Of a DNA stretch of 64,000 bases, positions 51,353 to 51,603 are shown one piece after another. Where the stretch lies: NCBI GenBank assembly GCA_031427135.1, contig JANPMV010000001.1, forward strand, positions 4 to 64,003. The letters are read 5' to 3'. The notes under the pieces are model-generated. The model did not search any database. It was not told where the DNA came from and worked only from the letters and a program-made list of their open reading frames with translations. A program made the translations under genes and the position numbers. Position 1 is the first letter of the stretch. Every line of letters starts with the position of its first letter. The stretch comes from Cyanobacteria bacterium VAR_87_metabat_62. Its GTDB lineage: Bacteria; Cyanobacteriota; Cyanobacteriia; Cyanobacteriales; Microcoleaceae.

Positions 51353-51437
51353 GGAAAGTGCGGCTGTGTGGACGGCAACTAATGTGGAATATTAGGGTGC
51401 AGCGAAATTTGTAGAGGTTCGACTCCTCCAATTTCCC
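51353..51437 (+). tRNA. tRNA-Ser(GGA)-like, class II
   Basis: Acceptor GGAAAGT/AATTTCC (one mismatch), arm CTAAT-GTGGAAT-ATTAG, T-loop TTCGACT. Confidence 0.6.
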
Positions 51438-51438
51438 T

Positions 51439-51603
51439 ACGGCTGATGACGGAAACGCGATGGAAATGGTAATTCCGGGCGATCGGGTGAAGATGACAGT
51501 GCAGTTGTTGCAGCCGATCGCGATCGAACAAAATATGCGTTTTGCCATCCGCGAGGGCGATCGTACTGTCGGTGTCGGTGTCGTCTCGAAAATTCTGCGG
51601 TAG
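51439..51603 (+). pseudogene. tuf: EF-Tu (tuf) C-terminal fragment
   Basis: [54 protein letters not shown] matches the last about 55 residues of cyanobacterial EF-Tu. An in-frame stop lies at 51412-51414. An ATG at 51460 would give a 47-aa ORF. Confidence 0.85.

Follow-up and report, generated by a model that had tools for sequence, protein, structure and literature searches.

A truncated EF-Tu gene at the end of a cyanobacterial tRNA array is probably a deletion remnant of an array-linked paralog

The long tRNA array in the 64-kb stretch of Microcoleaceae DNA analysed here (the window) ends in a short piece of a gene for elongation factor Tu (EF-Tu; tuf), which is very probably a pseudogene, the remnant of an EF-Tu paralog linked to the array, and still has its native terminator. 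An intact orthologue occupies the syntenic position in related genomes, whilst the start and most of the coding sequence have been lost here. The fragment itself is an ordinary deletion scar that calls for no special mechanism. The intact parent gene is a variant of known systems, namely the tRNA-tuf operon and the L-array, and is the part worth follow-up. Feature coordinates are collected in Table 1.

Table 1. Features of the window, of the intact locus and of other remnants. Positions are those of the window unless a locus is named; L-numbers are labels of related loci, with L012 as the coordinate reference for the intact locus.
Feature	Position	Strand	Basis or remarks
Long tRNA array (L-array type)	45186-51437	+	25 ARAGORN tRNA calls, accessory ORFs between
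PARG-like (microbial) ORF	47151-47990		Within array; Pfam
HNH endonuclease ORF	48927-49760		Within array; Pfam
RibD_C ORF	50410-50982		Within array; Pfam
tRNA-Ser(GGA), last tRNA of the array	51353-51437	+	ARAGORN; alignment with orthologous tRNAs
Deletion junction	51437-51439	+	blastn of window against loci and of L012 against all loci; breakpoint sequences
Array-linked tuf paralog remnant	51439-51603	+	Codons 356-409 and TAG stop; Pfam, nucleotide identity, codon alignment
47-aa ATG ORF within remnant	51460-51603	+	Gene call in public assemblies (protein P0002)
Intrinsic-terminator-like hairpin and U-rich tail	51626-51675	+	Hairpin 51626-51665; fold
tRNA-Lys(CUU)	53515-53588	+	ARAGORN; conserved landmark
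Intact tuf, L012	L012 8936-10162		tRNA-Ser end 8833, tuf ATG 8936
Intact tuf, L089 (Oscillatoria nigro-viridis PCC 7112)	L089 10001-11230 (CP003614.1 462604-463833)
Remnant, L030	Starts at L012 9919		After tRNA and 22 nt of spacer
Remnant, L010, L011, L013 (second copy)	Starts at L012 9961		261-bp direct repeat behind intact tuf
Remnant, L032, L035	Starts at L012 10008		Fused to RNase T gene 3' end
Remnant, L034	Starts at L012 10022
Remnant, L046	Starts at L012 10056
Remnant, L003-L008 and second copy in L029	Starts at L012 10080		Behind BrnT/BrnA cassette

Positions 51439-51603 encode the final 54 residues of EF-Tu, which make up approximately the second half of domain 3. A reading made from the sequence alone (the sequence-only reading) had recognised a domain-3 tail here, and the match of the window peptide to Pfam GTP_EFTU_D3 (PF03143; 61.2 bits, E 1.3e-16, profile positions 59-105 of 106) is far beyond chance. 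Translation of 51400-51606 also confirmed the in-frame stop that it had reported at 51412-51414 and the 47-aa ORF that it had started at the ATG at 51460, with the terminal stop at 51601-51603. When full EF-Tu was used as a tblastn query, the window was covered over residues 352-400 only, as were L001 and L002, and no second EF-Tu match was found within the 64 kb. An EF-Tu gene has the GTP-binding domain, domain 2 and a complete domain 3 in one ORF; the window copy has residues 356-409 only and is therefore a remnant rather than a member gene.

Comparison with related loci revealed what is missing. Twenty of them display the intact order of tRNA-Lys(UUU), tRNA-Ser(GGA), a 102-bp spacer bearing a GAGGAG ribosome-binding site (Shine-Dalgarno sequence), tuf, terminator and tRNA-Lys(CUU). 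Window positions 51010-51436 align to 8400-8832 of L012 at 88.5 % identity, and the match stops at the end of the tRNA; 51438-51603 align to 10000-10165 at 88 %, corresponding to the final 166 nt of tuf, stop codon included; and 53437-53592 align to 10424-10578, the tRNA-Lys(CUU) region, at 92 %. The intervening L012 segment 8833-9999, approximately 1167 bp comprising the spacer and tuf codons 1-355, has no counterpart in the window. The tRNA is kept through its discriminator at 51437 and codon 356 starts at 51439, 1-2 nt past the tRNA, so the earlier observation that EF-Tu homology begins hard by the tRNA 3' end was accurate. All related loci have tRNA-Lys(CUU) 3' of tuf or the tuf remnant, which confirms that the locus is orthologous. 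Of the two origins proposed in the sequence-only reading, an array built next to a tuf copy was essentially correct, with related arrays ending in a full tuf after tRNA-Ser(GGA). The other, a captured tuf 3' end with its terminator, gave way to a different account of the tight tRNA/EF-Tu junction, which is the scar of the approximately 1167-bp internal deletion. CTTTT(T)A occurs at both breakpoints in the intact relatives and the junction in the window reads CC-CT-ACGG; a microhomology-mediated deletion is plausible, although the junction sequence does not prove it.

So abrupt a junction might be suspected of being an assembly or chimeric-contig artefact that joined a tRNA to a tuf 3' end, particularly as repeated genes such as tuf often break assemblies (L014, for example, starts inside tuf). 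The same junction was nevertheless present in L001 and L002, whose flanks are 95.8 and 99.7 % identical to those of the window and which are two independent Logan assemblies from different sequencing runs. This identity, maintained in one case across 4 % flank divergence, indicates that the junction is not a misassembly, and we attach next to no likelihood to an artefact. A further candidate, an att-like duplication left by an element targeting tuf, was rejected for the window because the tRNA to the left of the junction belongs to the array itself and both flanks are collinear with those of intact loci.

When the 54-residue tail was used as a protein query, 46 clusters were obtained, all of them short EF-Tu tails of 31-92 aa, from filamentous cyanobacteria including Microcoleus and Moorena. 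One subgroup has the unusual QNMRF and REG(D/N)RT residues of the window. Conserved peptides of the subgroup, scanned in one genome per species, identified 28 cyanobacterial loci (L009-L035 and L046); most of the loci compared were thus recovered via 3'-end peptide patterns, which introduces an ascertainment bias. Full EF-Tu (residues 1-401, tblastn) was found in 19 of these 28 loci (L009-L013, L015-L021 and L023-L029). Full-length tuf was thus present at 20 loci, comprising 19 species-representative genomes, nearly all Microcoleus, and the chromosome of O. nigro-viridis PCC 7112. The gene lies about 100 bp past tRNA-Ser(GGA) and ends arrays of about 30 (up to 35) tRNAs, with tRNA-Lys(CUU) a few hundred bp 3' of it. 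The PCC 7112 locus (L089) additionally matches the window in having RibD_C upstream and a 320-aa GNAT acetyltransferase downstream.

The 20 full-length copies are, without exception, open 409-codon ORFs with the G1, G3 and G4 motifs (GHVDHGKT, DCPGH and NKKD). They carry all three EF-Tu Pfam domains (PF00009, PF03144 and PF03143) and pass the NCBIfam EF-Tu equivalog model TIGR00485, L012 scoring 715 bits against a cut-off of 522. Pairwise Nei-Gojobori dN/dS among intact copies had a median of 0.13 (0.11 over codons 1-354, 0.21 over the final 55). From these comparisons, the parent gene appears to be a functional, divergent paralog under purifying selection. Array-type EF-Tu sequences are 86-99 % identical among themselves and 73-84 % identical to 225 canonical cyanobacterial EF-Tu sequences, which average 89 % identity with one another. 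Changes typical of the array type fall at sites at least 96 % conserved in canonical EF-Tu, namely T94V, P112S, L146I, P211S, E214D and, in the REGGRT motif, G396N/D.

The genomic context of the two types also differs. Canonical cyanobacterial tuf was found as fusA-tuf-rpsJ (the str operon) in every context examined, including Thermostichus, and the array type was never found there. In the L012 spacer, no promoter-like or terminator-like site was detected between tRNA-Ser(GGA) and tuf. A complete tuf with no intervening terminator gives L012 the organization of a tRNA-tuf operon of the tufB type, which the window lacks through truncation of tuf, and in intact loci tuf is presumably the last cistron of the array transcript. 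EF-Tu is essential. Because of this, and because some genomes have only a remnant at this locus and canonical tuf occurs only in the fusA-tuf-rpsJ context, we infer that the array gene is a second copy and that a housekeeping tuf lies elsewhere in the genome. A phage origin of the array EF-Tu was discarded, as the best full-length matches in IMG/VR were at most 68 % identical. A plasmid origin was likewise discarded, as no cyanobacterial plasmid in PLSDB carries the gene; the plasmid arrays found there match only the tRNA part of the query. An array-linked EF-Tu was not described in the literature that we searched in full text (tRNA arrays or clusters, cyanobacteria or Microcoleus, EF-Tu).

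These data also bear on where the fragment came from. The sequence-only reading had proposed a comparison with the genome's tufA, but the housekeeping gene is not the parent, with the fragment 81-90 % identical at the DNA level to the array paralog and 73-77 % identical to the str-operon tuf of other cyanobacteria. The same figures weigh against capture, whereby a tuf 3' end and its terminator would have been taken as a module from the housekeeping tuf or elsewhere and joined to the array. Capture would explain why the fragment is always accompanied by its terminator, and extra 3'-end copies beside the intact gene in L010, L011, L013 and L029 suggest that such a module can duplicate or move. 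The fragment nevertheless bears the array-type signature residues (QNM and REGDR), and both of its flanks are collinear with loci that have the intact gene at exactly the same place, leaving capture highly improbable.

Truncation of the array-linked gene was not confined to the lineage of the window. The sequence-only reading had raised the possibility that other arrays end with the same fragment. This applied to L001 and L002, which share the junction, but not to the other remnants, which have different breakpoints. Independent remnants displayed at least six other 5' breakpoints with differing upstream partners and no common start codon or upstream signal. Six Microcoleus assemblies have a 31-aa tail of the QNMRF subgroup closing a tRNA array in which PARG-like, RNA ligase, RibD_C, RNase T and BrnT/BrnA genes also occur. 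All remnants found keep the extreme 3' end, which is partly a matter of ascertainment through the 3'-end pattern search, although selection to keep the terminator could also contribute.

Several further rearrangements were observed around tuf 3' ends. Extra copies of the tuf 3' end with terminator were located at 4600-4821 and 7518-7778 in L010, 5864-6124 in L011 and 12918-13178 in L013, with further 3'-end copies at 10865-11016 in L029 and at 7266-7387 and 8011-8314 in L004. In L010, L011 and L013 a 2.7-kb insert lies between 261-bp direct repeats beside the intact tuf, and in L029 and L004 a BrnT/BrnA toxin-antitoxin cassette lies between tuf-tail repeats. The tuf tail and terminator seem to be a recurrent recombination or insertion boundary. 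In L032 (around 9950-10050) and L035 (around 9945-10045), the stop codon of an RNase T-like gene is supplied by the tuf remnant in a different reading frame, which is another deletion fusion at the same hotspot. In Microcoleus sp. CSU_2_2, a tuf remnant with terminator (L034, 4506-4649) sits in a 14.6-kb stretch without tRNA genes, and the same metagenome-assembled genome has an intact array tuf on another contig (L026). Remnants may therefore occur away from arrays too, or the bin may be mixed.

Sequence constraint on the tail may be reduced. Window and L001 have zero differences across 51409-51803, including the fragment, and this pair gives no test of selection. Compared with its nearest intact copy, the window fragment has 17 differences in 162 nt, of which 6 are synonymous and 11 nonsynonymous. 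The resulting pN/pS of 0.58 exceeds the value of about 0.21 that pairs of intact copies give for these codons, although 17 substitutions are too few to be decisive statistically. Two replacements, S361N and A401V, are private to the window relative to 20 intact array and 118 canonical sequences, and A401V hits the GAGVV motif, invariant in all 138 of these EF-Tu sequences, which is consistent with decay. Amongst the departures from consensus listed in the sequence-only reading, GVGV (A401V) is indeed particular to the fragment, whereas IPGD, QLLQ, NMRF and GDRT are signatures of the intact paralog lineage. Other remnants have changes at invariant columns as well, including P368L, D370G and R389G in L035, V399F in L030, Q386K in the second copy of L011 and I407V in L034. 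Small as the counts are, this pattern points to relaxed constraint on the window tail. Decay visible as frameshifts or internal stops, which the sequence-only reading had suggested looking for in homologues, was absent from every remnant examined (27-81 codons, 1-16 % diverged from the intact copy), whilst replacements at invariant columns were present. The open frames are weak evidence because pieces this short and young would be expected to remain open either way, and little can be read from the lack of internal stops, to which significance had been attached, in 54 codons at such divergence.

On a different proposal, the array transcript would express the 47-aa ORF or the 54-residue tail as a functional small protein, which could for instance imitate the C-terminal strands of domain 3 and serve as a decoy or modulator. 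In its favour, the ORF is uninterrupted, begins with ATG and precedes a terminator, short EF-Tu-tail ORFs form a large family in public data (the 46 clusters above), and internal stops occur in none of the remnants. The independent remnants, however, start at different codons and share neither a start nor an upstream signal, and the earlier hint of a conserved 47-aa product is not supported. The short ORF is instead the default outcome: it exists because codon 363 chances to be ATG in the window (51460) and because Met 365, two codons further on, is universal in EF-Tu. No Shine-Dalgarno-like sequence was found 5' of 51460 in the window, the peptide covers only profile positions 59-105/106 of domain 3 and would be unlikely to fold alone, and A401V alters an invariant residue. 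We consider a functional small protein very unlikely; the 47-aa ORF is most likely not a functional gene, and the remnant is not expected to yield a functional protein or, presumably, to be translated.

A terminator after the ORF had been noted in the sequence-only reading, and folding supported it. The hairpin at 51626-51665, followed by UUUGUUUAUU, has a predicted free energy of -30.6 kcal/mol (z = -5.1 versus shuffles), and a stable stem-loop with a U tract just past the stop on the coding strand is what is predicted of a Rho-independent terminator. A simple terminator scan missed this hairpin owing to its interrupted stem and internal bulge. The same hairpin lies 3' of intact tuf in L028 and L029 and 3' of remnants in L030, L032 and L034, and a second hairpin type lies 3' of tuf in L012, L009 and others. 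A terminator hairpin is retained at all truncated loci, even in L004, where the remnant is only 44 nt long (7266-7387) and was found without a peptide pattern. Selection for a terminator may thus help the tail to persist, an effect that is inseparable from ascertainment bias in the present sample. In a stronger form, the remnant would be a functional non-coding 3' end, kept by selection because it terminates the long array transcript, rather than neutral debris. The strongly structured hairpin and its retention in every truncated locus, L004 included, are in keeping with this, but most loci were found via 3'-end peptide patterns, and the occurrence of two terminator types after otherwise similar tuf ends indicates that no single sequence is required. 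We regard this stronger form as possible but doubtful, and it is compatible with a deletion remnant rather than opposed to it.

The array preceding the remnant is of the L-array type, with tens of tRNA genes clustered on one strand. ARAGORN predicted 27 tRNA genes on the + strand of the window, 25 of them in the array, and Rfam gave 23 tRNA hits. Gene order in the window array is collinear with L012, L016, L027, L032 and L035. The last tRNA, tRNA-Ser(GGA), has its acceptor 3' strand at 51430-51436 and a discriminator C at 51437, and CCA is not encoded. A G6-A67 acceptor-stem mismatch in this tRNA was found in the window, L001 and L002 only, with C or U in the relatives that have intact tuf, and two pairs of the anticodon stem are changed in a fully compensatory manner (GG/CC to AA/TT) in the window and L002. 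The Rfam tRNA model scored below threshold for this gene and for the other two tRNA-Ser genes (49861 and 51030). Between tRNA-Lys(UUU) and tRNA-Ser(GGA), the spacer at 51199-51345 contains short tandem repeats, with units of GATTTTA (about 51205-51262) and others resembling ATCTGCG(T/G)T (about 51296-51335), and is the most variable stretch between the window and L001.

Other elements of the array and its surroundings showed variable states of preservation. ARAGORN called a tRNA with a 4-nt anticodon (ctct) at 45265-45343, whose homologue in L016, L027, L032 and L035 is tRNA-Glu(CUC); it differs by insertions of 3 nt in the D-loop region and 1 nt after the anticodon stem, has no Rfam call and is probably a degenerate tRNA. 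Conversely, 45476-45568 and 48671-48743 have Rfam tRNA hits (39 bits each) and no ARAGORN call, and are possible additional or decayed tRNA genes. A tRNA-like element at 56417-56487 also occurs in L011 (8995-9065), L012 (12847-12919), L016 (12834-12905) and L014 (3418-3489). It lies 2.3-2.9 kb downstream of the real tRNA-Lys(CUU), from which it was not copied, and its anticodon loop varies by genome, reading Lys(CUU), Stop(UUA) or nothing definite. The ORFs just downstream of this element (56461-57021 and 57162-58646) had no sequence match in Pfam, NCBIfam or PDB, and identification of the latter as a Ro60/TROVE protein was dropped on those grounds. Recurring accessory genes of the arrays were PARG, HNH endonuclease, RibD_C/DHFR-like, RNA ligase with a tRNA-binding domain, RNase T-like exonuclease, PIN and BrnT/BrnA; members also occur in L003-L008 (2426-3712 and 6617-7186), and the content differs between genomes. 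Such genes hint at RNA repair or stress as a common theme, and their patchy distribution between related loci is consistent with a variable island.

In sum, we propose the following course of events. The ancestral locus of the Microcoleus lineage would have comprised the array end, spacer, a complete 409-codon tuf paralog, an intrinsic terminator and tRNA-Lys(CUU). A single deletion of about 1167 bp in the lineage of the window would have removed the spacer and tuf codons 1-355, fusing the nucleotide after the tRNA discriminator to codon 356 and leaving the last 54 codons and the terminator in place. The remnant would probably be transcribed as the 3' trailer of the array transcript, ending at the retained terminator, which is presumably still in use.

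The long tRNA arrays of one cyanobacterial lineage include a complete, divergent EF-Tu gene under selection. If this EF-Tu works with the array tRNAs under translational stress, the array is a fuller spare translation module than had been thought, and natural knock-outs such as the window would provide ready comparisons of strains with and without the factor. One tentative and, on balance, unlikely proposal goes further: the array-linked EF-Tu would be a specialised factor that moves with about 30 tRNAs and with genes for a PARG-like enzyme, an RNA ligase and nucleases as a back-up translation cassette that is repeatedly gained and lost, the window representing one loss state. Such a factor might, for instance, be insensitive to a toxin or antibiotic directed at the housekeeping EF-Tu. 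The G396N/D change lies two residues before the Thr of REGGRT, which we take to be the target of the Doc kinase, T382 in E. coli. For annotation, ORFs of 31-67 aa labelled 'elongation factor Tu' beside tRNA arrays should be flagged as remnants.

The closest established arrangement to the intact locus is the thrU-tyrU-glyT-thrT-tufB operon of E. coli, in which tRNA genes are co-transcribed with a tuf gene. Intact relatives such as L012, which represent the ancestral state, share with it the position of the tRNAs just 5' of a tuf gene in the same orientation, the short spacer and the terminator that follows tuf. They differ in that about 25-35 tRNA genes and accessory ORFs are involved, and in that the gene is a divergent extra paralog, whereas E. 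coli has two near-identical housekeeping copies; in the window only 54 tuf codons survive. Kirromycin-producing Streptomyces have a divergent third tuf, an example of specialised or resistant EF-Tu paralogs. The intact parent gene is likewise divergent and extra, appears to be under purifying selection and has T94V, P112S and G396N/D at otherwise invariant residues, but resistance would be at most a candidate property of it, and the window itself has lost the gene.

The remnant, for its part, resembles the 5'-deleted pseudogenes of variable islands, with an intact orthologue elsewhere, lineage-specific breakpoints, private changes at invariant residues and no conserved start. Unlike the usual examples, it keeps a working-looking terminator and sits in a tRNA trailer, and is therefore probably still transcribed. 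The array as a whole compares with the L-array, a supernumerary tRNA set spread by horizontal transfer and induced under translational stress (Santamaria-Gomez et al. 2021, PMC8421152), and an HNH gene, all8564, adjoins the Anabaena tRNA array (PMC9938897). Both the L-array and the window array are dense, single-strand tRNA arrays of filamentous cyanobacteria with an HNH gene and similar tRNA order and content, and the tRNAs of the window array are putatively supernumerary too. EF-Tu or tuf is not mentioned as an array component in PMC8421152; in contrast to the L-array described there, the Microcoleus arrays have a tuf paralog or its remnant at their 3' end.
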